A stretch of 60,574 nucleotides of DNA, filler included, from Hausera hauseri (Eukaryota), in assembly GCA_046269625.1 (NCBI GenBank). It is 11 parts of 11 records of this genome, joined end to end, with 100 filler letters (N's around TTAATTAATTAA, not from the genome) between each part and the next. Parts side by side here need not be neighbours in the genome. Positions count along the whole stretch, not along the records: positions 25,374 to 33,046 come from JBJURY010001014.1; 10 more parts are not named here. One strand, written 5' to 3'. The notes under the pieces are model-generated. The model did no database searches. It was given only the letters and a program-made list of their open reading frames with translations, and was not told the origin of the DNA. The translations under genes were made by a program, and so were the position numbers. Numbering within the stretch: the stretch's first letter is position 1; the number at the start of each line of letters is the position of its first letter. Below are positions 9,822 to 47,268 of this stretch, piece after piece.

Positions 9822-11166
9822 GGCGAAACCTGTAATCGCAAATCAACTGTCGGAATGGTCCGAATTAGTAACGCAATTAAGCAAATTGGTAGAAGATCTC
9901 AAAACAAAATTTCCCCAAAGCGAGCCAACGGTAAAGAAACAAATAGAAGAAAGTGCGCACAACCTAGGCACGATGTGAATAGAGATAGACATCCGTACTA
10001 AATTCGAAGCGCTACGACGACTAAAATTTATGGAAAAGGAACGAGAAGCATTGATCATGGAGAAAATCTACAGACTGATCGAAGAGACAAACTTTACGGA
10101 AAAACGGAACATGATTTACAATGTAAACTCAAAGTTAAAGATTGTTCAACTCGAAGGAGTACAATACTTAACAGGAAAACCAATCGACGAAATTTCTGCA
10201 CAAAGCATTGAAATCCTGGACATTTGTCCAGAGCATCGAGATAAGTTAATGGTGGCAATAAAGTTTTTACACAAACCTCAAAAATGGATGGCCGGGTCAG
10301 ACCAGAATTTCCATACCAATTTGATAGAAATAGGAAACTACCCACATTCTAGTTTTCAGTAACATAAATTCGTAAAGAAAGTGTCGGATGCAATGGACCC
10401 TGATTCAAAAGTTATAAATGAGGTGTATGAGTTAGCCTATATATTGGTGAAAATGGCAGAAATAAGTGATGAGCAAATAAGGCAATTGATGTCCAAGATA
10501 CAGAAAATAAAAGAAACATGTATTAAGACGAAACAAAGAGCGACAATGTTGGATGAAATAACAAAGAAACTTGAAGTCTATCGAAACAAATATGCTTTTA
10601 CCAAATCAGAGATTAAGAATAAACGCGAATTTGTACAAAGATGTCAAAAGGATGTAATTCTTGAATTGACAGATTATCACCAGAAAGGGCTAGTTTGTCC
10701 GAACGTATTGGGCGAGTTATTGAAAATGATTCAGTATGCATGTGGAAACGGAGTAGGTTTCCGAACTACGCAAATGAAAGAAATACAACTTAGATTAAAG
10801 GAAATTCGGGAAAATATTCAAAGAGCCAATACGGCTTTAGCAGACAACTGACTTCCGTATGCCGGAAACGAACCCGAATGGGATGCAAACTTCGACGAAA
10901 TACTTGCCGGAAAACATATGACTCCAGTACAGCCAAACGAAATAGAAACAGGTTCGCAGGACAGGAGATTCAATGTGTAGATAGTACTGGATTTAGCGCT
11001 AAATGAAAAGGATTTTATTGAATTATTTAACATAAATATTACTGAAAACAAATTAAAACAACTTATTTCAACTTTAACTAAATTGTCCAGTGAGAACACA
11101 ATTTATATCACGGTGCCGAAACTTTTGATAAGGAAATATGTTAAAATTTTAAGGAATAGGCCTGAG

Positions 11167-11391
11167 GTGACGATAAAGGTAATGGTGTTATCCGAATGGA
11201 TAAACGAAAAAGAATGCGAGTTGATTACATATTCCTACGTAAAGAACGTAAGAAAATGGCTAGTAAACAACGGTGGAACGAACGAGTTAAATTACATATT
11301 TTAATTTAGAGGTAGAAGATTCAATGATCTAGAACAACTAATAGACGTAGGGATTATTCCTGACGAAACAAATCGGATAGTGGTCGTGATA
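11167..11391 (+). other. Ubiquitin-like (beta-grasp) domain within family B polyprotein
   Basis: VTIKVMV...ELITYSYVKNVRKWLVNNGG...FRGRRFNDLEQLIDVGIIPDETNRIVVVI aligns by eye with ubiquitin MQIFVKT...[20 protein letters not shown]...[27 protein letters not shown]. Confidence 0.65.
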
Positions 11392-12110
11392 ACTAACGAA
11401 CAAACAAAAGAAGAAGCCACGCGTAAAGCCAAAACAGAACAATGCGTAGGACAAATTATGGGAGTTCAAGACGCTGCAATGTATTTTGAGTATTTACAAA
11501 CAGACGAGGATAAGGAACAATACGACATAAATTTAGTACCAATGAGTAAAATATTTACTAAGGGTCCAAGACCGAAACGCCCAGTAGGTAGTCCTAGAAT
11601 AGTGCGAGAAGAAGTAGATTACAATGGAGAGTTAATTAGAGAATTGAAACAGATGTCGATCCTATCTCTTAGCACAGATAATGAAGAATTAAGCGAGTTA
11701 ATAAAAAATTTAATACGAATTGTAAATTATTCAAGCCTTCGAGGTGATGTATTAGATGATAAAGAAAAGACAATATTCAATGCAGCTAAGATGATGCGAA
11801 GTTCGCGTTTCAAACCATCGAAAAGTAACTTAACCGATGAATCGGTAATCGATAAGATTATGGTAGAAACACCAATGAGGAGTTGAGAAAAGTGTTATTA
11901 TATTTAGCAATCAAGATAAATCCTAATCGAGAGAACGAAATTAATAAGGCTATAAGTTTAGCACGGAAAGCAGCAAGAAGAATGACTTGCAAAGTAAATT
12001 GGACAAGACTGTTTTATAAGGAAGAAAACAAACGAAACAACAACAAACTCGACGACATGTTACGTAACCTGACGACGTCAGCCTTTGGAGGTCGAAAGAA
12101 TGAATCAAAC

Positions 12111-13500
12111 TGGCTGATTAGCTTGCTCACCTTAATCATGCTAATAAAGCACATAGGCGCCGTAACCGTATATGATTGCAATAAGTTTAAATTAAGACAG
12201 AGATATTCTTTAATGGACCTAGAAGTATGCGAGGACGCCAGACCGCACAAATTGGAAACAAGAGAAAAAAGTTACTTCATGCATCAACAGCAAGAATTAG
12301 TATCATTAGACGAAATGGAGTGTATGATGAGACGATCACGTAGCATTTTTCACTGTGGACTAGTACACGGACATTCCTCCATAATCAAGCCAACTACTCC
12401 TCTTATTCCGATGAATGTAGAGCGTCAACATTGCAAACAAGCTAAGGAAACTGGAAGAATACAGTGGGACGGAATGCAATTGGAAATGCAACCCGGAAAA
12501 ATAATCAGAGCGTACAAAGTAGTAGCTGGAAGGCTGGATATGCATAGCGGACATTGTAATGGAGCAGAATACGATACCGGAAAAGGATTAGAATCAAACG
12601 TTGTGGATTTCTACGACTCAGAAATGCGATCACAAAATGTAATGTTCCGTAGTGTCACCAAGTTATACACTGAGAATCAGAAATGCCATTTACAAGACAA
12701 ACCTGTGCTTTTAGAAGTTCGGTTATAATATGGGAACCTCCCTCTGGAAGAAGCTGTAACTTTATCAAAATTAAGTAGTTAAAGTATGATGAAACTACCG
12801 GAAAACAATATGTAGACAAATCGGAGACTAATTCAAGAACACGCGAAGATGTGTCAAAACACCCTATACCTACTCTATTAATCTCGGACCCGCACGGACT
12901 AAAATTTATAAAAAAGAGATGATGACTCGTTGTGATGTAGTAATGTTCGCCACAAACTATGAAGCGTTCTTTGTAGCCGAAATGGAGATAAACGCAAAAA
13001 CCTACAAATTGGAAATGCAGGATGTCCGGATTGAAGATTACCTGAAAAATAGAGATGATTATTTCTACTATAAAGGACAAGTCGGAATAACGGAATTACA
13101 TCGCAAAATGATAATGAATGACTGCAAATTTGATACAAAAATCATGAGAACTAAAATGGCTGTTATATATGCAAACCCAGAACTAGCTTCTCCAATAATT
13201 CCCATAATGGAAGGAATTTTCGGTCGAATTACGGGCGAAGTATTACTTTCCTCTGAATGTGAAAAGAGAGAAGTTCCCATCAACGTAGAGGAAAAACGTT
13301 GTATCCAGGAACTTCATGTTATTTATCAGAATACTCCAAGATTAGCTACACCATTGACGAGAGTGCTGTTGGATAACGCAACACAACCAATCATCTTTAA
13401 GGATTGTAAAGCAAGCTTAGGACAGCCAATGTTTAGACGTAGTGAAACAGACTGGGTTAGTTTACCTAATGGAGGTATTACTGCCGCTCCTAAGAAACGA
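12111..13500 (+). pseudogene. Chuvirus-like (class III, gB-type) envelope glycoprotein ectodomain, TM region deleted
   Basis: Signal-like WLISLLTLIMLIKHIGA then VYDC, SLMDLEVC, FHCGLVHGHSSI, GHCNGAEY, KNRDDYFY, GEVLL..CEKREV...C.QEL.V...LATPLTRVL. This cysteine/motif pattern is typical of chuviral and retroelement-captured glycoproteins. Confidence 0.82.
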
Positions 13501-13789
13501 GATGTTGTATTCACCGAGAGAGCCTAGAAATATTGAAACTAGACCGACAGTTTGGGACAACCCAAAATTACGAACATTCAAACATAATGAACTACATACT
13601 AACAATCGACAGCCGCTAATTAGTACTCACAAAATGGAAGAATTGCACGTAGAAAACAACTAATTATATCCAAACAAAGAGTTAAGACAGTTATCGGAAA
13701 ACATAGTATCCGCCCCAGAAGTAAGAATAAACGGACACAAAATATCAGTGACTAAACATTCGAAAGTAGCATCAAACTGTTTTGGAACC

Positions 13790-14413
13790 GTGATCGAAGG
13801 AAAACCTTTCGCCAAAATCATTATTGAAGATTGGGAAGTTTATGCGCTAACTGATACGGGTTCCGAAATGTCTTACATCAAAAATGATTCAATACCTCAA
13901 ACGCTAAGAGGACAATTATATTCGCCGTCTACGATAGATCCAGTCAGTACCGGAGCTTTTGGCCAAACGTCGAAACCAATGTTTAAATGAAACCCAGAAG
14001 TCCAATTAGCTAGATGAACTGTTCGGCATGAATTTGCAATCATAGAACAATTAACTGATGACATCGTTCTAGGATGCGATTTATTGAAAAGGCTACTAAA
14101 TATAGCAGTCGACTTACAAACAGGAAAACTAAATGAGATTAGACCAAAAAGGGCGTGAAGAACGCTAAGGATAGAAAATTCGGGAAGTGTGGATACCAGT
14201 AGACGAGAACATTCCGCCAAGAACGGAGATAATAATTTACGCACAGATTCAGCAAGATAACTATCAGCCAGTATATTTTGAGCCAAGGGCAACGTTAAAT
14301 CCTTATAAAACACTCAGTAATGTACTACCGAGAGTACACTCCGGTCGTGTACCAATCAGAATAGCTAATAACTCGCTGAGTCCTGTCAAGCTCCATGCTT
14401 ATAATACTTTAGG
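13790..14413 (+). pseudogene. Retropepsin protease and post-protease spacer of family B
   Basis: VYALTDTGSEMSYI, DIVLGCDLL, then IPPRTEIII...GRVPIRIAN. Confidence 0.8.
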
Positions 14414-14513
14414 NNNNNNNNNNNNNNNNNNNNNNNNNNNNNNNNNNNNNNNNNNNNTTAATTAATTAANNNNNNNNNNNNNNNNNNNNNNNNNNNNNNN
14501 NNNNNNNNNNNNN
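14414..14513. other. Artificial contig-join spacer
   Basis: N44-TTAATTAATTAA-N44. Confidence 0.99.
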
Positions 14514-14925
14514 CTTACTTCCACGTTCAACGAGTAAGGACAAGTTGGGCGTAATTTCTTATGTTTTTCTTTGGGTCGATCCTTTATCTGCTCATATTGG
14601 AATTCTCCCTGACAATATATGCATATTATTTGTCCCGTTGAAGTTCGGAATAGTCCGGCATTGGCATATAATTGTGCTAATTCCCCTGGAACAGGTGAAT
14701 TTGGGTATTCTAGGAATGATATTTTTCTGTTCTGTGCATTTCTCATGGAGTTGTCCAATACTGTCATTCTGGAGTAACTTGTCAGTCTCTTAATGAATGC
14801 TGTCGGTCCGAGTTGTCTATTCTGATAATGTAGCAGGTACTGTACTGTATTAGGTTGTGCTGGTCTTGTATATTCGTAGTATCTGGGGGCTTGAAATTTG
14901 ATTTCTCTTATTCTCTGCATTTCAG
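14514..14925 (-). CDS. IAP-like protein with BIR domain, truncated at contig end
   Basis: RKISFLEYP...LAQLYANAGLFRT...CIYC...KHKKLRPTCPY fits the BIR consensus R..SF..WP...LA.AGF...C..C...H....P.C.F. Confidence 0.85.
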
Positions 14926-14962
14926 CTAAAATGTAACCCAATCAAATAAGAACACTTTTTAT

Positions 14963-15270
14963 TCACAAATTTTTTATCGTATAATAGGCATGTTTATATT
15001 GAAATAGTTTATTGTTAGCACGACACACTGGGCATGAGGCTCCAATGGAGAACCATTCCCTCAGACACTGTCTACAAAACTGATGCCTGCAAGGGACCAA
15101 CTCCACTGGGTCTACGGAATATTCGTTTAAACAAATTGTACACTGGGCTCCCACAGGAGTAAAATTCCCACATGGGTTGTATATCGTATATACATTTATT
15201 TCATCTGTCTGGCAAAATGCTGGGAACCCGTGACTCAGTATGGTCGATGAGTTCACAATACGGGGTAAAC
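14963..15270 (-). CDS. RING finger (C3HC4) protein cassette
   Basis: CTICLNEY...LVPCRHQFCRQCLREW...CPVCR. No ATG in frame; starts after TTTTCTTAAG. Confidence 0.88.
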
Positions 15271-15325
15271 CTTAAGAAAATAAAATAAACAATTTGTTAC
15301 ACATAATTTTATTGATAATTTAATT

Positions 15326-15786
15326 TTAATCTATGTCCAATATTGTATAGGGTTGTGGGTTTCTCCATGCTTCCGGCCAGCTGCCGTCGTCCTCATCGAT
15401 CACTAGCACTATAGAGGATTGTCTATTCAAGTTCAAGTATGTGATCAGTCCTTCTGTGATATAAAAGTCCACCGTTTCCAGGCAGTAGGGGCATAATTGA
15501 CAACACGCCAAATATTCAAGGATGCATGACTGGCAAAATACATGCCTACACGATAGGGTGGCCAAGTCCTCAGCTACTAGTTTGGAGCACACCCAACAGA
15601 ATGTGCAATTTCTTCTGCAACAGGGGCAATTGTTATGTTCCCCCAGCCAGATGTTGATACAGGAACTGCAGTAGCTATGCTTGCATGGTAGTGTGGTCCT
15701 TTCCTCCATCATTTCTTCAAGGCAGATGGGGCATTTTTCGGGTTCCATTCTGTCTTCATTTCCACTTCCATTTCTGTTTCCGTTTC
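15326..15786 (-). CDS. Tandem double RING finger protein cassette
   Basis: CPICLEEM...LPCKHSYCSSCI..W...CPCCR followed by CWVC...LSCRHVFCQSCI...CPYC. Confidence 0.9.
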
Positions 15787-15990
15787 CTTAAATGGTAATA
15801 GTTTATTTCAAGTATTTTCTATATTCATTTACTAACAATAATAAGTCCTTCTAATAAAACGACTTCTATATGTTAAAATTTATCATACTATAATCATTCA
15901 CAGATCTACGATTCCACCTGTTAGGGCACATATGGGACACAAAACCAAATTTCGCGAGGTACAATAATCAATTTACTTTCATTACATATT

Positions 15991-16226
15991 TCATAAATTA
16001 ATTAATTTGTCAATTTCTTCCAAGTCATTCCACGATAGGGCGCAGATAGGACATAGTAAACAACAATCCTCATCCATGGTCATTAAACCCAGATTAGTTT
16101 CCTCCCTGCAATGTCCGCACTCAAATGAATCCTCTGGTTGTTTCAATTTCTCCACCAAATAACATAGGGGGCAGAGAATCTCCTCTTCATCCCAAGTTTC
16201 TGGAAATCTCTTGCAGATAATACAAC
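15991..16226 (-). CDS. Small Cys-rich Zn-finger cassette (four CxxC)
   Basis: CIIC, CPLC, CGHC, CPIC; no ATG before the fingers. Confidence 0.65.
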
Positions 16227-16393
16227 CTAAAACCAATATGATTCAATTGACTTAAGCTTCAAATTTTTCTCCTCCTGGTACTCAGTAATTTACAATTTAG
16301 TTATCTATATTGTTATTCTTCTATTTATTCTCATTACTTTATTCCCATTACTTATCATCAACAAACAACCAGAATCAGACGTTTATTATCGAT

Positions 16394-16680
16394 TTAAATA
16401 GGCATGATTATAAGTCCGTTGGGCCCGACTACATATAATGGGGTTGGATCTATTATCCTATCTTCTTGCTCTTCTTCCTCCTCGTCAAAAATCACCACTG
16501 TAGTAACTCCCAGGCAGTTGTAACTGCTCACCTTTCTCCTACAAAAGGGACAGTTTTGTTTCTTCGACAACCATTGATCGGCACACTTGGTACACATAAT
16601 ATGTGTGCACCGGAGTAAAGCGTACCGCAATCCAAGGGCATTGTAGCATATTGCACATTTTGTGGTCCCAGTTCTGACAT
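16394..16680 (-). CDS. RING finger (C3HC4) protein cassette with acidic tail
   Basis: CAICYNAL...LLRCTHIMCTKCADQW...CPFCR, then DEEEEEQED. Confidence 0.88.
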
Positions 16681-18496
16681 CTGATAAAATATAAATAATA
16701 TCCACTTGCTAAGAATAATAATTCTACAAATTACATCAAAACATTTAACCCTCGAGCTTATCCTCACTCGGGGCACCAGTTTATATGTTGGGTGTACAGG
16801 GGCTGTTAACAACCTTAAGCAGTACTCAACATATAAATCGTTTACAAGACAATGATCCATTTGGAAATGATTCGTGCTACCTGAAGGTTAATTTCGTGAG
16901 TTTGTCGATCTTCTCCCTGCTATATCTATTCCGATGTTTGTTACTTTAAGGAGTTCTCATTGTTGCAGTGCTTATTTAGCGTTAGGCAAATTCTGATAAA
17001 GTTCCTAATAATTATAATGTTAGTACCGGTCATCGCCGCTCTAAATTCACCCAGACAATAATTTATCAGTTAAATTCATTTTTTCTAACCCAAAAGACCA
17101 TTCCCAAAATTCGCGCGAGCATGCCCTCACAATCGACTTGATAGGGTTGAATGAACAGCTACCATACTTCAAACCAGCAAAACTACATGGTTAAGTTGAT
17201 ACACAATTAAATTCTATGGGAAGGTAACGATCATTTCAATTATATAGTCACAACCCAATAAAAGGAAAGGAAAGGAAAGGAAACAATCATTGGGAAATCC
17301 TTATTACATCATCATAAAATAGTGAAACTGAATATTAAACAGACGATAATTATTGATCAATAAAACTGAATATTATTCATATAATAAATATACAGACTTG
17401 GTATGTTACCTGTTCGCAGTAGTATTACAATCCTTATTAATCTACGCCAACCCCATTTAATAAAATACCAATCATAAATTATCAATCGATACTGTTTAAT
17501 AACTAATATATTAACTATTGTATTCAAGTTTTAAAAGAAATCAAATGTAAAACTTTTAGAATAGTGTGTGGTATATTTCTCGATTCTAATCAAGGATACG
17601 TATTTATATATATAGTTGTATAATGAAAAATATTATATTTAAATTTTATTTTTCTTGGGACTATATGACGGCACTTATTTATTATTTCTATTTTTTCTTT
17701 TCACGTTAGCTCGACTTCGGCTCGATACTTGAGAGATGATTTCGACTACCTCTTGAGAGACCATATCCGTACTGGAGTTTCCTCTATCCACCATTTCCAC
17801 TGTATGAACCTCCATTATTTCGATAGTCAGTACCGTTAGTAATCTCTAAGCTCAAAGCCATCTACAAAATTGCTCGTATAAATACACCGTACCTCCTAGA
17901 ATTCCAAACCGTATTGTATATATTCATTTCACGACAAATAAACACATATATATGTACTCGAAACAACATTATTCAGTATAATTCACATAGGAGACTACTT
18001 TACTCAAAACACCATTTACCCATCACAACGCAATTTCGATTGGCACCAATGCATCGGAATTTCCACTCGCATCAACTGTAGTTCAATCCACATTTCATCT
18101 ATGCGGTATCGTAATCTTCTTGTTTAGATTTTCAGAGATCGTCCCTTGGACATATTTTCGAATACCGAATACTAAATTCATTTAATCAATACACTCACCG
18201 TTTAACCAACGCCCGGGGATAAAATGTTTCATTCTATTTATCGATGCTAATTTTTATTGTATAACAAATATATATACACAAAACATTCATCATAAAATAA
18301 TAAAATTGCAAATTTATAAATTTAAGTAACATATACCGTGGACTTCAATTTCGTTATCATCAGGTGAATTATCGTAACTGGCCATGAATTTATCGTAGCA
18401 GAATGTATCTAAGGCTAAAACCTTTTTCGAAGTATTACTTGTAAAGTAGTAGAAAAAGTATGGTTATTTCATTTATGACTGATGTGTTTATATACT

Positions 18497-25373: not shown

Positions 25374-25707
25374 AATAATTCGCATTTTGTTAAAGTGAAA
25401 TTGTAAAGTGTGTCTGTATGAAAGTGACTATAATTCAATAACATGTATCGTATGTCACTCGAGTGGTCCACATTACATTAAATGGATATGTGCAAAAAGT
25501 TTGTAAATTTTCCCACCCGTCATTATGAGTGTTCATAACCATGTTCATGAAAACCGCGAGTCATGACTTGTTTAATGTCCGCTAATTTGAAGCTTTCGTT
25601 CTAATTAATTAATAAAGAGAACAAATGCAACTTATGTGTTATATATATTTTAGGGATGTATTCCGTGGGAATGAGACTGAGATTCTTACCTAAAACTTGG
25701 TAGGTGA

Positions 25708-26308
25708 TGTGTACCGGGTCGGTTATTATTTTTATATTAGTTACTACGGTTTAATATATTACCGGATTATTTATTATTACTTGGGCGGTCGTCAGGTAGT
25801 TTTGACCTGGTCGACCAACGATCCGATTTAATATACTCTTAGTTAGTTATTTACTTTAGTGATTCAAAAATAGACTGAACTTGAAAAATATAATCTGTGT
25901 AATGGAAATATAAAAACAAAATTTAACAAACAATCTAAAATTACAATAACGTACACTTACGTGAAGTCATAACACAAGGTTAACAATGTTCAAGGTTCAA
26001 CGTTAAATGTTTCAAACTACTGAGTATAATACTGCTTATATAGTCATTTTATCGTAGTGGCTTTAACAATAAAATTCACAGTATCCACACCAAAATAAAA
26101 CAAACGGTAAAAATAATGACAATGAATCATAAATAAATCATAAGTAACACATGAACAACGAAGCTGTCAAATAAGAGTTGAAATTTACGAGTACTAAAAA
26201 TCAGCCATTAAATAATTAATACGTTCCACTGATTACTAATGAATAGTTTATTGATTCCACAGTTCACAGAGACTAATAGTGAATAATTAATCAATTCCAT
26301 AGTTCACA
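25708..26308 (-). repeat. Candidate 3' LTR of Gypsy family C
   Basis: Minus strand TGTGAAC...GTACACA (6/7 inverted termini), TATATAAG near 26040, directly downstream of the last ORF. Confidence 0.6.
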
Positions 26309-26477
26309 GACTCGACGGGGGCTGGAAGAAATTGACCCAAATTTGTCAATTGTTCAGGAGGGGCATGTGAATGAATTTATCTATTGTTCGTGATTTGTAG
26401 CGGATGGATGCAGGTTCGAATACTTTATCGTCAACAGTGGTAGTTTCATCTAGTTGCAGATGCCTTTTCCTGCCACA

Positions 26478-27007
26478 TTAAAATATGGTTGGTGCTGTTC
26501 GCACCTCCTCGGAAGCCGAATTTTGAGTTATCAATTCATCGACCCATTTCACTTGTTTATAGATGGATTGGTAGCATTGCACCAAGGCAGTGCTACAAAG
26601 AGGAAAACCTTTAGTGTCATAAAATTTTCTTGCTAACTCTTTGAAAGTTCCAGTCAGTAATTGGTACTGGCGAATTACTTCTTCATGATATAAAATGTCG
26701 CGGATTCCGGCCAACCGCCGATTGGGCATTTGAAATGGTTTACTACCATTTCAATAACCTCGGCTCCGATTACCACTTTGTCCGTTAGTATTTCTGCCAT
26801 TTTTCGGTAGAAATTCGGTGTATCCATCTGGTTATTGATATTGGCTTCAGTTGGACCCGTTATATGCGTATCAAAGTTATTGATACGCTGTCTTGGGGTG
26901 ATTATTTCATACAAGAGTGTGTCCCCGTGCAGAGTCATGATTGATGCTTCGATGGGTTGGAGCTGGTTCCATTGGTCGTAGGCCAAGTTTACGACTGCTA
27001 TGACCAT
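26478..27007 (-). pseudogene. DEDDh 3'-5' exonuclease-like domain (REX4/ISG20 type), catalytic residues absent
   Basis: EASIMTLHGDTLLYEIITPRQRINNFDTHITG...AEILTDKVVIG...IRD...FKELA parallels REX4 RVSIVN.HG.VLYD.YVKP...VTDYRT.VSG...AELLKGRILVG...IRDT...LKKLA. One frameshift near 26730. Confidence 0.75.
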
Positions 27008-27124
27008 ATCGCTATCTTTTATTTTATCAATTCTTCGAAGGGGGATACTTTTATATTTAATGTAGTCTGGTTCCGGAAGATTGAAGCATTTTCCTTCAGG
27101 GAGGCTCGGACAGAATTTTTCGTT

Positions 27125-27574
27125 CTTTATCACTTCCATTGATAATATTATTCGGTTGGTGCCAGAACGAATTTTAAATGTATTTGTATTAAGAAACGTA
27201 TGATCGAAAGCGAGACCGTGTTCTGCGCCCAAATTGATCAAATCTCCTTTTACAGCTGTTTTCTTATTGGAAGTTTTGACTTGCAGTTGACCAGTAACAC
27301 AATAAAGATTCATGGAATAAAAACGTTCTGGTAAGATCAATATGTCCGACAGATAGAAGGAAATAGCTTTCGAGATTTGCAGAAGGGCGAGCGAACGATT
27401 CACCATACCGTAGCCTTTCCAGTTATTTGGAATTTGTTGTGCCTGTGGATAATTTAGACTAGTCATGGTATTATTGTGGACTATATGATATTGATTGGAT
27501 TGATTTGCTTTTATAACGTGGTTCTTAGCATTGTTATACCAATGCTTTGATCGATTAATTGTCTGGATTTGATA
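27125..27574 (-). other. AlkB/2OG-Fe(II) dioxygenase-like (DSBH) domain, probably inactive
   Basis: VNRSLAL...ISFYLSD...FYSMNL...KGDLINL...FDHTF...RIILSME parallels AlkB FNSCLVN...IGWHxD...IASLSL...GDLLVM...WxHxV...RINLTFR. Confidence 0.4.
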
Positions 27575-27775
27575 GAACGTTGACGAAGATACTGCAAGAA
27601 ACAAAGTCAATGTGATTCTATACACGATATTTAAATTCAACACAACGGTTATCATACACATCACTAAGGTAATCGTTGTGGTTATTGGGGAATGAATTCG
27701 ACTATAAGTAACTAGATGTTGTTTGGCTATCTTTTTTCTTAGGGTTGCTTTGATAGCAATCCCTGTGACTAATTG

Positions 27776-29161
27776 TCAGCTGGGATTGTCTGTATCTAAC
27801 GGATTTGTTAGATCACGCATGTTAATTCTAACCCAGCTTCTACTCTGTTTACATTGCAAGTGTAGGATTTTGATTACTATTATCGATATGACTATCAACG
27901 TTAAAGGAACTAAGGATCCGATTAATATTACCTCCAAACGAGAATATTTATACGAGGCTCGAGAGGGTTTGCTAGTTACTTGATTACTAACTGGATTTAT
28001 CTTATAAATTAGTTCCTTTTTATGACTCTTCTTTGTAAATGCCGACATTACCTTGGTAGAAGTTATCTTATCATTATCATCTATTAACTACAGGATAACC
28101 GTATACCTTGTATTAGGGTCTAAGGCTGCGCATGGTACTATCAAATCATCCGGCGTTAGTACTCCCTTCGCTACTACTGTATCTTGTTTCTTACATGTGA
28201 ATCTAATTTTCAATAAATCTAAATCTGGCCTAACGGATATAATTAGAGCAGTAGGGGCTGCTATAAAAGTTACGTTATCCCATATAGAGCGCTTTTAACG
28301 ATAATAAAACGCGTAAGGTCTAATCAAAATAGTCATTTCTTTTTTATCGGTCAAGAAGTTCATAGCTGGTGTCGTAATCTTTTCCTGTATGTCATCGTAT
28401 TCTTTTTGATTGTTATATCGTATAAACATCGTTGGTCCGGTTCGCTCTAATGGGTATCCAAATTTATTATTTCTTCTCCGAAATAGGAGATATTGAATAT
28501 GATATATTTTCCCCCGTGTAACCATACAACAGACTCGTTGTTGTGTACCATTTAGTCTGCAGACTCTAACCTTCGGCCTCACTGTTTCTACTAGTTTTAT
28601 TGTTATTCGTCGACTATCTTACAGTTATATCATTGTTATTATCTAAATTCAACTTCTTCCGCTTTTAAGTCCCATTGATCTTGATATTATCTGATTAAGT
28701 ATTACTTCGTTTAATTGAGTCTCGTTCATCTGTTGTCTTGTAGTGATTACTATTAATCTATAAAATTTTGTTTTCTGGCTTTTTTAGTGATCTCCCTGTC
28801 TTTTTATGAGTGTAACGTATATGTAATGGACACCTGAACCTTGTAAAATAGACAGTGTCTGATTGGTGTCTGAGTGGAATAATCAGTTATATTGTCGCTC
28901 ATTTGGGTCTCTTGTATTATCATACCACGGTATTATTTGTATCCCCATTATATATGTTGGGGGCAGTTGTTCTGGCATATTCCAGTTCATCACTTTTTGA
29001 CCTTTTTCTGAGTATGTTATTCTATACCGTAGACGTTTCATTAACAAGTCTTCTTTTATGACTATTGTATGTAGTATTTTTGCTCTTTCGATCTCTTGAT
29101 TCGTCAGCCGTCCGATCGCTCTGGGGAATGATAAGATGATGCTTAATAACAAACACTGCAT
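27776..29161 (-). pseudogene. Env-position membrane protein: signal peptide, FN3-like, furin-like site, FN3-like, TM
   Basis: MQCLLLSIILSFPRAIG; VMNWNMP..IMGIQI...HYIYVTL; YYR*KR|SIW; CAALDPNTRYTVIL...SAFT; TM VILIGSLVPLTLIVISIIVIKIL. Interrupted by point stops. Confidence 0.6.
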
Positions 29162-32100
29162 TAACCAATGAGATCCATTGGTTGGATCTACCCTGTTTGA
29201 TTTTTCATTACTACTTACTACTTCTTTTTAGCCTTTTCTTAACTCACTTCCCTTGGCCGCTGGTTTACATCTATTAAGGCGAACCTTCACAGATGTATTC
29301 TTCTTCTTCAAACAAATATTAGGTAGATCCACTCTCTCTACTTCTTAAGGCCCTTTATATGGCCTATCCAATTTTGATGTTTTACCCTTTTTAGTGGGCC
29401 GTGAATATAACATTACCTGGTCACCTATTTTAATTTTTGGCTGTTTGGCCTTTTGTCATAATACTTTTTCATTTTAATTTATAGTCTTTCTGGTTATCAC
29501 CAATTGTTTTATATGATAGATGGAGGCGTTCCTACATTAACTGCTTATAATCTCCTACCTCCATTAGACGCGAAACAGGTTTCAGTCGGTAATCTTTCAT
29601 CCCGTAAATACATCAAGTAAAAGGGTGTCTCTTTAGTAGCCTCGTGGACCAATGTCCGATTTACAAAAATACATGCATTGATATATTCATCCCAATTGTC
29701 TTGTCTAGTGTTTACTACCATTTGTTATTTCCCTTTTAGATCTCTAATATATCTGTCGATCATTCAGTTATTTTCTGGGTGTCCCGGTGTGGATCGTAGT
29801 TTTAATATCTTCAAAATGTCATATATTGACTGAATTACGGTTCCTGTTAAATTTGACGCTTGATCGGTTAAAAGAATTCTTGGAGCTCCATAACTAAATA
29901 CTATATTTTCCACAAATTACTCAGCGATTATATCTGCCTTCATATCAGCCATTAGTAGGGCCACAACCCATCTAGTAAAGTAATCAGTAAAGACTAGGAT
30001 ATATCGGTTTCCATTTCGGGTTAATGTTAGTGGCCCCGTTATGTCCATTGCAGTAAATTCAAATGGTGCTGGGGTTGTCCCATATCTTTAATGGTGCTTT
30101 GAATTTTGATCCCATGTTTTTTCGGGTGGTACATAGTTTACAACTGTCGCACCAGTCCTGTACATCTTTCGATATCGATGGCCAAAAGAATTTTCTTTTC
30201 AACTTTTTAAGCGTTTTATTTACTGACTGGTGTCTACAAAGGAGTCCATCATGGTATTGAGTTAACAGAACTGTTCTGTTTTTCTTGGGAATTACTAAAG
30301 TAGGTCCATTTTGATGAACAAAGTATAAAAGTCCTTCTTTTTTCTCATAAGCTTCACTGAATCGGGCCAAATGGCGAGTTAATCCTTTATCAGCTGGTAT
30401 GGTTTTGTCCTTTATGCATCTTCTAATGGCCCTTATTTTACTTCTTTTGTTTTGATTTGCCTTAATTTTTTCTACTGATCCATCCATGCTCCATAAGGCT
30501 GCGACTACTGCTTTTTCCCTTTCTGATTTACTGGGTATTCTGGATAGATAATATGCGTTTGCGTTACGTGATCCCGGTTTATATTGGAAATTCAATGTAT
30601 AGGGCTGTAACTTTAAAGCCCATCGTAGTAGTCTGCTGTTAGGATTTTCATGTTGTTTTAACCATCGGAGCGGTTTATGACCTGTATAAACTATGAGAGG
30701 TTTATTTTCACTAATATAGGGCGAAAACACCTCCAAGGCAAATATGACTGCGAATAGTTCTTTTTTAATTACCGCATATTTCCTCTAATGTTTATTGAGT
30801 TTTCGTGAAGCGTAGGTTACTGGGTATTCCTTCCCATCTTCACCCTTTTGTAAAAACACTGCTACTATCCCATAGTCGCTTGCGTCCGTTGCCAAAATGA
30901 ATAGTTTGGTCATATCCGGATAGAATAAATAGGAGCAGTTAACAGCCTATCCTTTAGATATTCGAATGCTTTTTGGCATTTGTTTGTCCAAATGACTTTG
31001 TCTAGGTCTTTGCGTAATAGTTCATACAAAGGTTTTACAATTTTGTTAAAATCCTTTATAAATCTTCGGTAATAGTTTGCCAGATCTAAAAACTGACGTA
31101 ACTATTTGACTGTACCTGGCTTTGGGAAGTCTCTTATTTTTCCCAGAAGCTTGTCTTGAGGTTTTACGCCATGACTATCTACTCTATATCCGAGGAAATC
31201 TACCTCTGCTTGAGCAAACGAGCATTTCTTTGGGTTTATCTTTAGGCCCATTATTTCGCATCTATCAAAGAGATCTTGTAGATCACTTAGATGTTGTTGA
31301 AAATTTGGCGATGCTATTATTACATCATCAATATATACCATGGCATGTGGAGCGTCTAGCAGCAAAAGTTCTGTTCCTCTCTGAAACGTTGGCAGTTTAT
31401 TCTTTAATCCAAATAGCATCCTATTAAATTCCCATAAACCTTCTCCGATTGCAAAGGCTGTCTTTGGTTTATCCTCTTCTTTCATTTCCACTTTCCAGTA
31501 ACCTTTTTGTAAATCTATTGTTGAGAATATTGTTGACCATGTAGTTTACTAATATTTCGTCAATTTTTGATAACGGATATGTATCCGTTTCCGTTATTTC
31601 GTTTAATGCCCAATAGTCTATACAAAATCTCATAGTCCCATCCTTTTCTTGACCATCACTTCTAGAGACGTCCATGGTAAACAAATTGGTCAAATTATCT
31701 CGTTTTCCCTTAGTTCTTTTATTATTTTTTGTGCTTCTTGATTTTTATCATATGCTAGTCGATAAGGTCTTTTCTTTATGGGTTTGTATTGTTTCTCCTT
31801 CAACTTAATGACATGTTGCATTATATTCATTGTACCAAATCATAATTATTTTGTGCAAATCGATTATTATTCTTTTTTAATAGTTCGATCAGTGTCCTCT
31901 TCTCTTCCTTAGTTAAAATCTCGCATTTCTGTAGCTTCTCATGCCAATTGATACTGCTTATTTTATTTCTTTCTCTATCTTCATTTGGTTCCTTCTTTAA
32001 TTTCTTTGTTATTAATTTTTCTATTCTATCTACGTTTGAAATGGTCGAATATATATTTTGTTTTATTATTTCCTCACTGGTCGTTATTTCTCCTAATCTC

Positions 32101-33046
32101 ACATTCTTACGCAGTCGCCTTTCTTTACTTGCCGTATTACAAATCCGCAAATGAATCTTACCATCCCTCACTCTATATACATGGGGGCGATTAGAATCTC
32201 GTACTTCTCCATAACTTGTGCAGATGGTTAAAAGTAAATAACCTTAGGTAATGCTTGACTTTCTATTTCTCCGGGTACTACTACCTCGGATCGCGGTTGG
32301 ATTGTCATATCTTTTATTAATGTGACCATTTCTTTGTCTTCACCGAAAGTCTTCAGTTGAAATGTTTACAAATCTATATAAACATTTCCCAATTGGTTTA
32401 GTATATCACATCCAATTAAAATTCCGTTAGTCAGATTATCGGCTATCCTTATAGTATGTTCTACAATCTGTTCACCGATCCTAATTTTGGCATTTAAGAC
32501 CATCTTGATTTCTTCTTCTGTGCCGAAAGATCCTACATTTATTAAGGTAGTTGTTGGTCATCGTAATTTCCTTTTTAACTCCTTTGGTAATTGGCTCCTT
32601 CCCATTATCGTCGTTGTGGATCCAGTGTCCAGCAAAGCCGTCATTGGGTATTTATTAACCTCTATCTCTATTTCTGGCCTTATAGGTAGTTGTCCATTTT
32701 TATCATCAGTTTTGTATCTAGATTCACGTTTATATGGTGTTACATTTTCGTCAAGATTTCGTTGTATCTGTTGTATTTGATGCACTGGGTATGTTAGGAT
32801 CTCTTGGTTACCCAAAAATCTAAATTTAAAAAAATTGGAAAAACGATAAGAATCCCAAACTGAACTTTTTGAATTTGAAACCTGTGAGAGAAATAACCAT
32901 TTCCCCAATCAACAAAAATCCCAAAAAGTAAAAGTCAAAAACGAGCCTGAAGAGCAAGAATCCAGCTACACAAATTCGAAAACCGCATTAAAAAATAACA
33001 ATCCAAACCGAAACAGTTCAAAAAACAAGTCAAAAAGCCACAGAAC

Positions 33047-37709: not shown

Positions 37710-37809
37710 NNNNNNNNNNNNNNNNNNNNNNNNNNNNNNNNNNNNNNNNNNNNTTAATTAATTAANNNNNNNNNNNNNNNNNNNNNNNNNNNNNNNNNNN
37801 NNNNNNNNN
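37710..37809. other. Artificial contig-join spacer
   Basis: N44-TTAATTAATTAA-N44. Confidence 0.99.
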
Positions 37810-40800
37810 AATACATTATCTGACAAACAAGTTATATCTGGTTCAACAATAGTAGTTAAAGGTCTACCAACGAGAAAATGAGCGGGCGAAAGCGCTTCTA
37901 AATCATTTGCATCATTAGACAAGGGACTAATAGGTCGCGAATTTAAGATACCCTCAACTTCAACTGTAATAGTAAGAAATTCTTCATATGTGAGTTTTAG
38001 ATTACCAATTGCTCTTTTAAGGTGAAATTTAAATGATTTAACTCCAGCTTCCCAGAGTCCACCAAAATGTGGAGCTCTAGGGGGAATAAATTTCCAACGA
38101 ATTGTCTCTGAAGTGAGGTAATTTGCCAGTACTTCATCAGGGTATTTTACTAAATTGTGCAGATGTTTTAATTCACGGCTGGCGCCTATAAAATTGCTTC
38201 CATTATCCGAAAATATAGTGGTACATTTTCCACGTCTAGATATAAATCTTTTCAAAGAAGCAATAAATGAATCTGTAGTTAAGTCCGAAACTAATTCCAA
38301 ATGGATAGAACGTGTAGCTAAGCATATGAAAATTGCGACATAGATTTTATTCAATGTACCCTTACGTTGATTCCTATATTTAACGAAGAACGGACCACAA
38401 AAATCAATGCCAACATTAGTAAATGGAGGACTAGGCGTTACTCGTTCAGTGGGTAAGTTACCCATAATCTGATCTGAAACCTTTGGTTTATTCCTGAAGC
38501 ATACTATACATTCGTGAACTATTTTTCTGGCAATGTTTCTACCTCCCAAAGGCCAGAATTCCTGCCTTACCAAGTAAAGGAGGGTTTGTGCACCAACATG
38601 CAAATACTTACAGTGAAAATATCTCATTATAATCACTGTAAATCTATGACCCCTAGGAAGTAGGATTGGGAATTTTCGATCATATGATAGACTTGAATTC
38701 AGTAATCTACCTCCAACGCGAATAATTTCTAGTTTATCTAAGAAGGGATGCAAGGAACTCACATGAATATTTTTTACCTTGTTTTCGTTTTTAAGGGCTT
38801 TCAATTCATTAGAAAAAGCCGTTACCTGAATCAATTTTATTAACCTAATTTTTGAATCCTGCAACTCCTCATTTGTTAGAGGTCCTACTTTTCTATTGGC
38901 CTTAGCAGTTCTTGAGTTGTGAAGAAACCTGCAAAGAAAACTAAATACACGAATTAATTTTGAGTAACTATTACTTAATTCTAAAAAGTACTCAACAAAG
39001 AAAGTATTGCTTGTAGAAGATAAACTAATTTCTGATTGTCCTTTAAGTTCGGATAAATAAAGATCATCTGAAATGACCGCAGTATCAGGTATAATACTGG
39101 AATCTTCAGCCGAGTCCGGTGTACACTCAGGTCCATACCACCATAAGTCCGCTGCTTCAAGTTCTTGAGGGTTTAAGCCTCTAGATATGATATCTGCAGG
39201 GTTAAGATGCGACGGAATATGCTTCCACTGGTAATTTTCGGTTAAAGTCTGTATTTTCGACACTCTATTGCCGATGAAGGTTTTCAGTCTATGTGGAGGG
39301 GTGTTTATCCAGGCCAATGCGATTGTTGAGTCTGTATAACAAATGATTTCGCAAATATTCATTTGAAGAGAAAGACGAATTCTTTCCACCAGTTGTGACA
39401 GAAGGAGACACGCTGACAACTCCAAACGAGGAATCGAAATGACTTTGACTGGGGCTACTCTAGACTTACTCGCTATAAGCTTATTGACAGCTGTGTCATT
39501 TCCCAATTTACATTGCATGTAAACAGCAGCACCATATGCTGATTCAGAACTATCTGCATACCCTAACATACTAATTCTTTCAAAAGACTCTGTCAGGATA
39601 TATCATGGGATTTTTATATTTTCTATGAGTTTCAAAGAAGTCACAAATTTTGACCATTCCTGTTCGATTGACTGTGGTAGAGTATCTTCCCAGTTTAACT
39701 TTTGAAGCCATAATTTTTGCAAGAAAATCTTAGCCTTTGTAATAACTGGACCAAGGAGGCCCAATGGATCATAAAGTCGAGCAATAACCGACAAAACACC
39801 TCTCTTAGTGTAGAAAGGCTCAACCCTTAAGTCTACTTTAAAAAAGAAATAATCCTCTTTAGGATGCCAATTCATACCCAAAGCCTTGACTGTAGAATGC
39901 TTATCGACAAAAAAAGGTTCTTCGTCATGTGGATCTATACTACTATTTAAAAGTTCAGATGAATTCGAAGTCCATTTGTGAAGTTGCATTCCAGCCTTTT
40001 GAAAAAGTAATGTCAATTGTGTTTGAAGTTCCTGTGCTGATTCCAGATCAGCAGCGCCACTGACAACATCATCCATATAGACATCACGCAAAACTATTTT
40101 TGAAGCTATGGAAAAGGTATGTGCTTCGTCCATAGCAAGTTGCTTGAGAGTTCTTATAGCTAAAAATGGCGCGCAGGCAGTCCCATATGTTACTGTATTC
40201 AAACGATATATAATGGGATTTTCATTTATGTCTGTCGTCCATACGATTCGAAGGAAGTCTCTTTGAGATGGCTCAATTAAAATTTGACGAAACATTTGTT
40301 TAATGTCCGCAGTAAATGCATATTTATGTGTTCGAAATCTAGTCATTATATCAAAGATATCTTCAGTAACCTCGCCCTTCAACAAAAAATCGTTAAGAGA
40401 TTGACCAGAAGGTGCAGGTGATGACGCATTGAAGACCACACGAAGTTTAGTTGTTGGTTTATCTGGTCGATATACGCCATGGTGTGGAAGATAATAGCAA
40501 TTATCAGGCCAGTGTTTATTGTCTATCCTTTCCATATGACCCAAATTTTCATATTCCAACATGAAATTTCTATAAAGTTCTTGCATTGGTGGGTTTCTTG
40601 ACAATCTTCGATTTAACTGCCTCAACCGTAATTCAGCAATGCATTTGGAATCACCCAAGAAATCAACTTCCTCTCTCATTGGCATCGTGACAATGTAACG
40701 ACCAGTTTCATCACGCCTATGAGTACGCTTAAAATGCTCTTCACAATATTTAGTCTCCTCACTCATAATTGTCTGACTCAAATCAACTTCTTCTAATTTC

Positions 40801-42725
40801 CAAAATTTTTCTAAACAACTATCAATATCAGAAATCCGAGAAAGACCACAATAACCATATGTTTGCCGTGTCGTTTCAACTAGACCACTGGCTATATACC
40901 CAAATACAGTATTTTGAAATATAAGAGACTTCAAAGAAGTGCGAACATGATTACCCTTAACAATGTCAAAAGATATATCTGCTCCGAATAAAATATCAAC
41001 CTTTGATGGTGCCATAAATTTAGGATCCGCCAAGGTCGAATAATGTGGAATTTCTATGCCATCGATGGTCAAATAATTTGCAGGAACCATATCCGTAATC
41101 TTAGCAACCACCAGAAAATTCAATGATGTCGAAAATGAACCATTGAAATTTGAAATTCGTGTGAAAACACTATATTTCACATTAACTATGTTTTCACTTA
41201 ATCCAGAAATTGCGACGTTTACCTTTTGATTACTTAAACCAAGTTCAGTAGCAAATTTTGACGTAATCAAATTACTTTGGCTTCCGTTATCCAGAAGCAC
41301 TCTTCCCCGTATATAGCTATTCTTCTGGGGTGACCATACCCAAATAAGAGCCGTTGAAAGCAAAACAGTTTTATTCGATGAATTCTGCATAGCAGAAAAA
41401 TTATGAACAGTTTGATTACTTTTATTCAATTGATTTATTTCAGTGGAAGCATCAGTAGACATTGGCAGTTTAACTGCAGAATTTCCTTCAGAAGAGGGTG
41501 CTGAAATTAATTCTTTAGTAGAAGCATTTGTTTCACTCGAGGACTTATTCTGATTTCTGCATAAAAGATAATTATGCTTTTCCGAACATATTCGACAACA
41601 ATAACTTGAGTTACATGTAGCTAATTTATGAGAATCAGACAAGCAATTTAAACAGAGGTTATGCTTTTTTACAAACTTAAATCTCTCAACAGGGGTCAAA
41701 TTTAAGAACAAGGTACATCTATATATGACATGTGGCTTTTTACACATAACACATAAATTACTGTTCTTATTAACCACAAAGCTTTTTCTTTTATTTGAAC
41801 TAACTTTTGGTTTCAGTAAAGGTAACTGAACCCCTTGTAAATTCTCTAACACTTGAGAACGCTTTTCTAGGAATTCAATAAATTTGTCCCATTTAGGTAA
41901 CTCAGTCGACGTTAAACTCATCTCAAACAGCTTACGTGTATCTTTATCTAATTTTTGCACAATAATATTTATTAAAATTTGTTGTGCTAGTTCAGTAAGT
42001 TCGAGCTTCATCAATTTTAAACCTCTCAAATTTTTATTTATTACATCGACAAGATTTCTTAAATGTGTAGACGATTCTACGTTAAGCCTTTCTGTATTCA
42101 AAATATTTAAGATGTGCGTATTTACAATTAAACGCTTATTTTCAAATCTTTCCATTAATACATTCATCAATGAATGAAAAGTATCTTCCGGCGTTTCAAT
42201 TTGTTTGACATCCCCTTTTAACGCCGAACGTAAATAAAATAATCTCTGTATATCGTTTAAAGCAGAGTTATTAGTAATTAGACTATCAAATTGCGATTTA
42301 AAATTGTTCCAATTATCAACTTGTCCATCAAATTCAGGTAGCTTAATATCAGGAAGTTTTACAGAACTAACATTAACTTTATTGTCAATACCAGACTGTA
42401 AACATTCACCAAGTTCAAATAAAGTTTTTTGCAAGCCTACCTTCGCTTCCTCCAAGTCTTCTTCCATAGCATCGAACTGCGAATCCATTTCCGGAAGTTG
42501 CTCGTCTTCTAAAAGTTCGTAATATTTCTGTTTCAACGCCTTTAATTCAATAGTAATTTCAGCAACACCTTCTATTTTACTTCTTATTTTGTACCTATTA
42601 GCCGACGCAACCTTTTCCTTCAAAAATGTTTGCAACTTCGTAATTCTAGCCCTATAGTTGCCTTTATTACGATTTAAAGTTTTTAGCCTTTCTTCAATGG
42701 CGGCTTTCTGTTCAGGAGTCGACAT
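37810..42725 (-). CDS. BEL/Pao Gag-Pol polyprotein with one premature TGA at 39603-39605; continues at 43546-43246 across the circular join
   Basis: The 1108-aa and 603-aa ORFs are in the same frame; KIP*YIL replaces the usual IPR (CGA>TGA). Confidence 0.9.
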
Positions 42726-42798
42726 TTTGCAGCAAAACGAATTGGTCTCAAACGAAGAAGTAAACATATAATTTTCAAATTTTAACCTTTCACAGTTT

Positions 42799-42818
42799 AC
42801 TCCGGCTACCAAGGACCA
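42799..42818 (-). promoter_or_regulatory. Primer binding site (tRNA-Tyr-like)
   Basis: TGGTCCTTGGTAGCCGGAGT, 6 nt after the LTR end; resembles TGGTCCTTCGAGCCGGA. Confidence 0.7.
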
Positions 42819-42824
42819 AAAATA

Positions 42825-43235
42825 TGTTGTGTTCTTTTTGTGGACTGTAAATTTCGAGTTAAAAATAACAACTAAAAAATCCAGACAATATTTTATTTTC
42901 AATTTAAGATGCCGACTACATCCTTTCAACTTAATAGCGAACTAACCACACGAGCAACAACTCACGATCGAGTCGCGCCCTTTTGGGGTTACTATTTTTG
43001 GCAGAGCGTCAAGCCTGACTTGGCGCCCGTTACCGAGGAAACGGATGCGCCAACATCCCGCCCGACGCTGCAGTGTCACACGACACACAAGAATTTAAGT
43101 TGACAAACAAATGCAACAATTGAATACTAACAAAATTTTAAAAATGTTAAAATTAAATGCAATACAAAAGAATTAAAATATAAATGACATAAGTGATTTA
43201 AAAATTTCAATATTTACAATAAAATGACATAAACA
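42825..43235 (-). repeat. BEL/Pao LTR (~411 bp)
   Basis: TGTT...AACA between the pol stop (43246) and the PBS. The 5' boundary is less certain because the PPT is weak. Confidence 0.7.
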
Positions 43236-43723: not shown

Positions 43724-44585
43724 CTGGGTTCCATTTAAACATTGGTTTTGACATTTGGCCAAAAGCTCCTGTACTACCCGGAACTTTCGTGGACAGCGGA
43801 TATACCTGTCCTCTTAACGTCTGAGGTTTTGAATAATTTTTGATGTACGACATCTCGGAACCCGTATCGATTAACGCATAAACTTCCCAATCTTCAATAA
43901 CGATTTTGGCAAAAGGTATTCCTTCGATCACTGTTCCGAAACAGTTTGATGATACTTTCGAACGTTTAGTCGCTGATATTTTGTGTCCGTTTATTCTTAC
44001 TTCAGGGGCGGATACTATGTTTTCCGATATCTGTCTTAATTATTCGTTTGGATATATTTCGTTGTTTTCTACGTGCATTTCTTCCATTTCATGAGTGCTA
44101 TTTAGCGGCTCCCCATTGTTAGTATGTAGTTTAGTATGTTGGAAGGTTTTTAATCTTGGGTTGTCCCAAACCGTCGATCTACTTTCGATATTCTTAGGTT
44201 CTCTCGGTGAATGCAATATTTTGGGATCAACTGCGGATTGCCGCTAACACATTTTCCGTAAAATCCCATATAGTTTTGTTCCATCATAAGGATTTTCTAC
44301 ATTAATTGTTCTTTTATAGATTTCCGTTTTATATGAGCTCATGGATCGTTTGTCACAATCTTCGTAAAATAGAGCGGTAGGGAGTAACATGGGTAATGGC
44401 GCTTTAACTACAGAGTACACCTTGTGTCTATTTATCCCTGAGAATGCTTCTCCTCTTTTAGGCTCGTCATCATCTGAATTATTTCTTCGTATAATAGGTT
44501 TTGTAGACTTCCGCTTCCGTAGGAATAACGGTCTCCCTCTTCGTTTACAATTATAGTAATCGACATGACGTTCTACGTCCGCTTT

Positions 44586-46325: not shown

Positions 46326-47043
46326 TTTGATTCATTTTTCCGACCTCCAACGTCTGACGTCGTCAGACTACGTAACATATCGTCGAGTTTATTGTTGTTT
46401 CGTTTGTCTTCTTCCTTGTCAAGTAGTCTCGTCCAATTTACTTCGCAAGGCATTCTTCTTGCTGCTCTTCGTGCTAAGCTTATAGCCCGATTGATTTCAT
46501 TCTATCGATTAGGATTTATTTTGATAGCTATGTATAGCAATACTTTTCTCAATTCTTCATTCGTGTTTTCTGCCATGATCTTTTCAATTACCGATTCATC
46601 AGTTAAATTGCTTTTCGATAGTTTAAAACGCGAACTTCGCATCATTTGGGTGCATCGAAATTTATCTTTTCTTTATCATTTAACATATCTCCTCGAAAAC
46701 TAGAATAATTCATAATTCGTATTAAATTTTTCCTTAACCTGCTTAATTCCTCATTCTCGGTGTTAAGGGTTGGAATCGACATCTGCCTCAATTCTCTAAT
46801 TGACTCTCCATTGTAATCCACCTCTTCTCGCACTTTTCTAGGTATGCTTACTGGGCGTTTCGGTCTTGGACCCTTAGTGGTTGCTTTGCTTAGTGGTACT
46901 AAATTTATGTCGTATTGTTCTTTATCTTCGTCCATTTGCAAATACTCAAAATGTAGTGCAGCGTCTCGGACTCCCATGATCTATCCTACGCATTGTTCTG
47001 TTTTGGCTCTACGTGTAGCTTCTTCTTTTGTCTCTTCCTTAGC

Positions 47044-47268
47044 TATTACTACCACTATCCGATATGTTTCGTCAGGAATAATCCCGACATCTATTAATTG
47101 TTCCAAGTCATCTAGTATTCTACCTCTACAATAAAATCTGTAGTTTAACTCGTTCGTTCCACCATTGTTTACCGGCCATTCTCTTACGTCCTTTACGTAG
47201 GAATGTGAAGTCAACTCGCACTCTTTTTCATCCATCCATTCGGATGACACCATTACTTTTATTGTCAC
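47044..47268 (-). other. Ubiquitin-like domain (family B copy 2)
   Basis: VTIKVMVSSEWMDEKECELTSHSYVKDVREW..NNGGTNELNYRFYCRGRILDDLEQLIDVGIIPDETYRIVVVI. Confidence 0.68.

Follow-up and report, generated by a model that had tools for sequence, protein, structure and literature searches.

The window, meaning the whole stretch of 60,574 nt of Hausera hauseri DNA that was analysed, is made up of 11 short contigs with N spacers between them. One of these contigs (25374-33046) carries on its minus strand a decayed pol in which the Ty3/Gypsy order PR-RT-RH-IN is present, with Pfam matches to RVP (E 3.6e-6), RVT_1 (1e-21), RT_RNaseH (1.9e-15), Integrase_H2C2 (1.6e-18) and rve (4.8e-10). After pol, a single frame interrupted by 9 stops runs from 29161 to 26678, and two accessory genes can be distinguished in this region, ORF3 and, directly downstream of pol and ORF3 on the same strand, ORF4 (Table 1). 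ORF3 contains one strong transmembrane-like hydrophobic helix at 27928-27872 and has, by eye only, a fibronectin-III-like look, and a scan of its four open pieces gave no family match.

The sequence-only reading had placed the two domains of ORF4 at the end of what it called the family C accessory frame. ORF4 is most likely a gene of its own that follows the stop at 27778-27776, because its open relative P0003 (447 aa, 55% identical) starts at a Met that matches 27655, and residues 1-442 of P0003 align over 27655-26361 in two frames by tblastn. The two sequences are 53-60% identical without a gap over both domains. ORF4 also extends about 130 nt beyond position 26478, at which that reading had ended it; the segment past the premature stop has its homologue in the end of P0003, where a basic KKRR stretch lies. 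The present copy of ORF4 is a pseudogene.

Table 1. Features of the accessory region and of pol on contig 25374-33046 (positions in the window)
Feature	Position	Strand	Remarks
Decayed Ty3/Gypsy pol	29300..32749	-	protease, RT, RNase H, integrase in this order; many stops and frameshifts; six-frame translation
ORF3 remnant, env position	27776..29161	-	461 codons, 8 internal stops
Polypyrimidine tract and CAG, 3' splice-site-like	29121..29137	-	inside the apparent signal peptide of ORF3; putative splice site
ORF4 accessory gene	26346..27655	-	about 440 codons; frameshift near 26720 and stop at 26480-26478 in the present copy
Polypyrimidine tract and CAG, 3' splice-site-like	27592..27612	-	overlaps the hydrophobic leader of ORF4; putative splice site
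Domain 1 of ORF4	27083..27556	-	beta-rich, family-conserved, IPNxLK motif, net basic; likely cupin-type barrel
Domain 2 of ORF4	26540..27007	-	DEDDh exonuclease homologue, all five catalytic residues replaced; alignment and profile matches
C-terminal remnant of ORF4	26346..26477	-	past the premature stop

The element that bears ORF4 is high-copy: run X1 has 2931 contigs that fall on the 3.1 kb from 26300 to 29400, and run X2 has 206, most of them less than 95% alike. Within the window the accessory region with ORF3 and ORF4 is found on no other contig. It is conceivable, if improbable, that ORF3 and ORF4 form a separate repeated unit, such as a nested or adjacent mobile element or a viral fragment, rather than part of a Gypsy element. 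The 7.7-kb contig contains no long direct repeat and shows no LTR pair (it starts just before the protease), none of the contigs listed spans 26300-29400 as a whole, and the relatives of ORF4 are stand-alone ORFs. However, ORF3 and ORF4 lie on the same strand as pol, ORF3 starts about 140 nt past the integrase tail, the multi-copy cover is unbroken across 26300-29400, and one 1936-nt contig of run X2 combines pieces of both ORF3 and ORF4. The spacer between the ORF3 stop and the ORF4 start (27683-27770) varies strongly among copies, with loose ends and joints in the contigs, as would a spacer or an intron.

The exonuclease domain and its relatives

On profile and alignment evidence, domain 2 of ORF4 is homologous to the DEDDh exonucleases (PF00929) across ExoI-ExoIII, and the exonuclease fold pattern recognised by the sequence-only reading is thereby borne out at the level of sequence. 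P0003 matches ISG20L2 (7yw5) at E 0.0026, with ISG20 (1wlj) and a PolC exonuclease next at E 0.14, RNase_T clusters rank first in the ESM Atlas (0.90), and against a bacterial DnaQ-like profile the hhalign score is reached by 0/40 column shuffles and the HMM score by 1/500. Assignment to PF00929 is based on the PDB match and the family alignment, Pfam and NCBIfam scans of the ORF4 piece and of P0003 themselves being blank. AlphaFold models, for which the input alignments had 1 and 3 rows, reached pLDDT 30 and 33, and fold searches on such models returned nothing significant.

Word-based protein searches retrieved P0003 as the sole relative, and locus searches of viral and metagenome contigs yielded none. 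A profile search of 1.84 billion representatives at E<=0.001 returned 46 proteins, namely P0003, five stand-alone proteins that we take to be REXO4-like from a reading of their motifs, and 40 others; the profiles leave out the locus of an unpublished genome (G229). Pfam RNase_T is present in 21 of the 45 new matches. The 40 relatives stand at about 20% identity (16-22% to P0003), and none of the 21 clusters that were looked up has an informative name.

The register of the catalytic columns is set by a 47-row alignment that includes catalytically intact relatives. Where D, E, D/E, H and D are expected, ORF4 has V, N, M, L and L and P0003 has A, N, T, L and L. The D-x-E of ExoI, the Asp/Glu of ExoII and the His and Asp of ExoIII are thus absent from both, as had been read from the sequence for DxE, the middle D and HxxxxD. 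In ExoII both proteins have an acidic residue one position earlier, and a one-residue shift is possible there. Among the relatives, 30 of 40 cover all five columns, and the census is confined to these, with the 10 partial ones left out: 19 have the full catalytic set, 11 retain one residue of it or none, and no relative lies in between. The intact relatives have H-x4-D and are hence of the DEDDh type. By this alignment ORF4 and P0003 are members of an unnamed two-domain family in which predicted intact and dead nucleases are both present. The claim that the catalytic residues are lost therefore holds for the close relative P0003, dead at the same five sites, but not for the family at large, in which 19 of the 30 distant relatives retain them all.

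In a FastTree tree of 36 rows, from which the catalytic columns, the 10 partial family members and P0037 were removed, ORF4 and P0003 pair with support 1.0, and four of the REXO4-like proteins form a separate clade (0.998). Dead members occur at several places in this tree, implying 3 label changes, and the free tree is 18 log-likelihood units better than one in which the dead members are monophyletic, but the backbone is weak. It is possible, then, that catalysis was lost repeatedly and independently across the family. One dead member, P0017, ends in a RING finger and may be a fusion with an E3 ligase, which would agree with a part in counter-defence. An argument based on Arg53 of ISG20 (PMC9157404, as far as its available text goes), which is replaced by Asp, was dropped, the column being Arg in none of the 19 intact relatives.

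The predicted loss of catalysis is older than the decay of the present copy, because all five positions are also replaced in P0003, with which it shares only 55% identity. In run X1 about 99% of the contig depth at the first ExoI position, and in run X2 all of it, differs from the present copy and gives the non-acidic residue of P0003. The earlier proposal of a pseudo-exonuclease agrees with these data, and the inactivation, being common to P0003 and, at this first position, to the copies listed, is not a matter of decay. Differences between ORF4 copies are mostly synonymous, and the dead exonuclease is kept conserved: of the 40 differences listed over 26560-27010, out of 85 difference rows, 29 affect the third position of a codon (p 5e-7), 30 leave the residue unchanged, and none lies at a catalytic codon. 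Another set of 15 difference rows in the ORF4 frame comprises 12 non-synonymous and 3 synonymous ones; 6 of the 12 match P0003 and many are near-fixed. We read this 12:3 excess as private decay of the present copy, though it points against selection.

The same excess, together with the frameshift and the stop in the present copy, is what could be expected if ORF4 had once encoded an active exonuclease and were now a relic without function, decayed along with its element. We consider this very improbable, since P0003 is open over 447 codons while dead at the same sites and keeps its gap-free identity over both domains, since synonymous differences predominate between copies, and since the loss of nuclease residues in the family is all-or-none.

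The basic beta-rich domain

Domain 1 is conserved in the family: an HMM built from 30 other members scores the domain of ORF4 at 32.6 bits, shuffles reaching 8.6 at most. Its net charge is +8/+9, that of the exonuclease domain of P0003 being 0. One His column is conserved in 26 of 32 rows and is Tyr in ORF4 and P0003; the residue is retained in 16 of 17 members with an intact nuclease and in 7 of 12 with a dead one (p 0.056), which is suggestive only. No HxD/E...H iron triad is conserved across the 32 rows, even beside intact nucleases; an HxD/E string after residue 40 occurs in 7 of 32, and there is no second His column.

Cupins and AlkB proteins are both double-stranded beta-helices. Over 53 columns domain 1 matches Cupin_2 (PF07883; 30 sequences) with an hhalign score of 21.0 (E 0.004, probability 8%, reversed 12.3), a value reached by 0/60 and 0/30 column shuffles and 0/40 block shuffles. 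The match, which includes the hydrophobic-strand-Gly motif, is modest. PDB and Pfam scans return no cupin, and the domain differs from Cupin_2 by an N-terminal extension with the IPNxLK motif, by its fusion to a nuclease and by the two-His metal-binding motifs, which are not conserved. From the profile comparison, a cupin-type barrel is the likely identity of domain 1, with modest support. A weak lead comes from the ESM Atlas, where domain 1 alone scores 0.81-0.82 to nuclease clusters, with no AlkB row. PDB matches to kallistatin and PfCyRPA were taken as chance.

The sequence-only reading had described this domain as AlkB-like with the His of HxD lost, and on that description ORF4 would encode a fusion of two dead enzymes, an AlkB demethylase and an exonuclease, acting as an RNA-modification reader or an anti-silencing module. 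The last strands do have AlkB-like spacing in the register drawn by eye, which hhalign recovers at a probability of 0.16%, and one short-AlkB profile scores 13.5, above 30/30 column shuffles, a result that the shared barrel class could explain. There is also a precedent for AlkB in Gypsy elements: an ORF of Phalaenopsis orchid elements, with a recognisable PF13532, is described as having m6A demethylase activity in vitro (PMC9289625, in the text available). Like ORF4 it is an additional ORF of a Gypsy element, and its product may share the broad double-stranded beta-helix class with domain 1, but domain 1 shows neither AlkB homology nor the metal triad. Compared with four home-built AlkB profiles (56 sequences, bacterial only), the 32-sequence profile of domain 1 gives hhalign scores of 7.9-13.5 at probabilities of at most 0.29%, reversed controls giving 11.4-13.5, against the value of 21.0 for Cupin_2. 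A two-sequence query does not rise above shuffles against these profiles, and none of the 21 members scanned has an AlkB match in Pfam at E<=1. A glocal PSSM test had no power, its exonuclease positive control reaching a z of only 1.0. With a single His column and no conserved HxD/E in the family, a dead AlkB demethylase is improbable in our view. The fold class may have been recognised correctly, cupins and AlkB sharing it, but the identification as AlkB is not upheld.

Nor do the two domains stand as tandem pseudo-enzymes. Only domain 2 is traced by homology to an enzyme, and nothing shows that domain 1 ever was one, because it has a single conserved His and lacks the iron triad even where the adjoining nuclease is intact.

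A hydrophobic leader or an intron end

The sequence-only reading had further taken the protein to be membrane-anchored. A hydrophobic stretch does exist at the start of ORF4, with a core of 9-13 residues and a 19-residue hydropathy of about 1.85. It overlaps the 3' splice-site-like tract at 27592, which is tied for second in pyrimidine count among the 216 YAG sites on the minus strand of the contig, the top one being the site at 29121 in ORF3. In the family a hydrophobic leader is found in 3 of the 29 relatives with N-terminal cover and is missing from the other 26. After the hydrophobic runs P0003 reads ...Q-M and P0022 ...Q-K-M, the pattern expected of an acceptor with a start codon behind it, and P0008, the sister of the leader-bearing P0022, starts at the downstream Met. 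Membrane anchoring is doubtful because the leader is confined to these three relatives and overlaps an acceptor-like tract; the apparent anchor is probably the end of an intron read as protein. The acceptor signal is not decisive, because T-rich hydrophobic codons give pyrimidine tracts anyway, and the tract alone is compatible with a true signal peptide.

Were the leader real, the dead protein would be membrane-tethered or secreted, and it could serve at a membrane, either as a particle or envelope accessory beside ORF3 or, at sites of small-RNA processing, as a decoy. The position of the ATG and the hydrophobic core are common to ORF4 and P0003, as is one N-glycosylation sequon right after the leader, and all three leader-bearing members are catalytically dead. 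However, the core is short and coincides with the acceptor-like tract, and most of the family, P0008 included, does without it. We regard a real leader as unlikely, while rating it above the relic, AlkB and separate-unit alternatives. In insects the gypsy env is reported to be spliced onto a short upstream exon (PMC12992720, in the part available). The case is a warning that what looks like a hydrophobic leader on an ORF behind pol may be the end of an intron.

Proposed role and related systems

We favour, with a probability of about one half, a scenario in which ORF4 encodes a two-domain accessory protein, probably soluble and made from a spliced RNA, that binds nucleic acid or a partner rather than cutting. 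Its ancestor would have been an active 3'-5' exonuclease of the same family, whose catalysis was lost while the fold was kept under selection for the benefit of the element. Expression could proceed from a subgenomic spliced RNA, as for the insect gypsy env, and the protein may bind the RNA or the cDNA ends of the element, or else the partners of host exonucleases, thereby shielding the nucleic acid of the element from 3'-end trimming or decay by the host. Of the two domains, domain 1 would be the likelier to contact nucleic acid because it is basic and the exonuclease domain is net neutral. A binding role for the dead exonuclease, already suggested in the earlier reading, is a reasonable proposal.

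Precedents exist for both halves of this scenario. Bdelloid rotifer Vesta/Juno LTR retrotransposons carry ORF3s that encode DEDDy exonucleases with intact catalytic residues (PMC5408684), and rotifer LTR elements with DEDDy ORF3s appear also in PMC5718144, PMC6431247 and PMC6338049, as far as the available texts of these papers go. Vesta/Juno ORF3 resembles ORF4 in that an additional ORF, lying behind the pol of a Ty3/Gypsy-type element, encodes a DEDD-family exonuclease. The rotifer protein is, however, RNase D-like, of the DEDDy type and intact, and the text available from PMC5408684 describes it as having no TM or coiled-coil domains, whereas ORF4 is a DEDDh (ISG20/REXO4-like) homologue that is dead, lies behind a beta-barrel domain and is the second of two accessory ORFs. 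In the same text the rotifer authors offer a role in RNA 3'-end processing or in silencing, with activity not shown (PMC5408684). The precedent in LTR elements that had been claimed for rotifers is accordingly found there; the one claimed for nematodes is not among the literature matches listed, in the portions of text available. The solved structures matched best, 7yw5 and 1wlj, belong to the DEDDh exonucleases of the ISG20/ISG20L2/REXO4 type (PF00929). From these ORF4 departs by the replacement of all catalytic residues, by the domain added at its N-terminus and by a GIRDL-type motif specific to the family.

DEDD-fold proteins that have given up catalysis are likewise known. The PXL of PML is described as a pseudo-exonuclease domain that binds nucleic acid (PMC13659232), and Maelstrom and EXD1 as host proteins of the DEDD fold that lack catalysis, bind nucleic acid and take part in piRNA biogenesis (PMC5408684), in the passages available from both papers. 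The ORF4 product is like these in having lost catalysis and in its likely mode of action, binding, and differs in being encoded by the element rather than the host. Taken from sequence comparison, it likely works as a pseudo-exonuclease does, as a homologue and not an active member of the DEDDh group, and it is likely not an AlkB.

A broader version of this proposal would be that a widespread, undescribed family of mobile-element accessory proteins, composed of a cupin-like barrel and a DEDDh nuclease, has lost its catalysis in several independent events. The dead versions would then have been kept as decoys that counter silencing or the trimming of RNA ends by the host, and their expression from a second subgenomic RNA made by splicing would give a Gypsy element an accessory layout reminiscent of complex retroviruses. 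This version is speculative, and we put it far behind the main reading and barely ahead of a real leader. In the literature searched, which comprised main texts and few subscription papers, no family that combines a cupin-like domain with a DEDDh nuclease is described, and the main text of PMC13524379 contains none of the words 'exonuclease', 'AlkB' and 'DEDD'.

On the question of why LTR retrotransposons capture exonucleases, this family offers a single architecture that occurs in nature both active and dead, the dead form being under purifying selection in a high-copy element. This makes catalysis and binding directly testable against each other, and could reveal an element-encoded counter-defence.

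The other contigs of the window hold a variety of mobile-element and viral-type genes. Two copies of one element, about 85% alike, lie at 9822-14413 (+) and 43724-49051 (-); in this element the ORF of a Monjiviricetes-type fusion glycoprotein (11856-13527) comes ahead of a protease motif of retroviral type (13844; 43877), such that env precedes pol. A BEL/Pao polyprotein at 37758-42941 (-) is nearly intact, with one in-frame stop between pieces of 1112 and 614 codons, and an identical 77-nt repeat at both ends of its contig (37810-37886 and 43547-43623) represents either the ends of LTRs or the place where the assembly of a circular or tandem unit overlaps itself. A Polinton-like segment with a protein-primed DNA polymerase B and an endonuclease VII-like part is found at 7940-8653 (-), and a fragment of a ubiquitin-activating enzyme E1 at 231-842 (+; NCBIfam Ube1, E 5.5e-58), on a contig that also holds a Gypsy remnant. 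A tight cluster of short ORFs at 14513-16708 (-), in which three ORFs have RING fingers, one of them two, and which includes a BIR domain, looks like a viral or Polinton-type array of IAP/E3-ligase genes.
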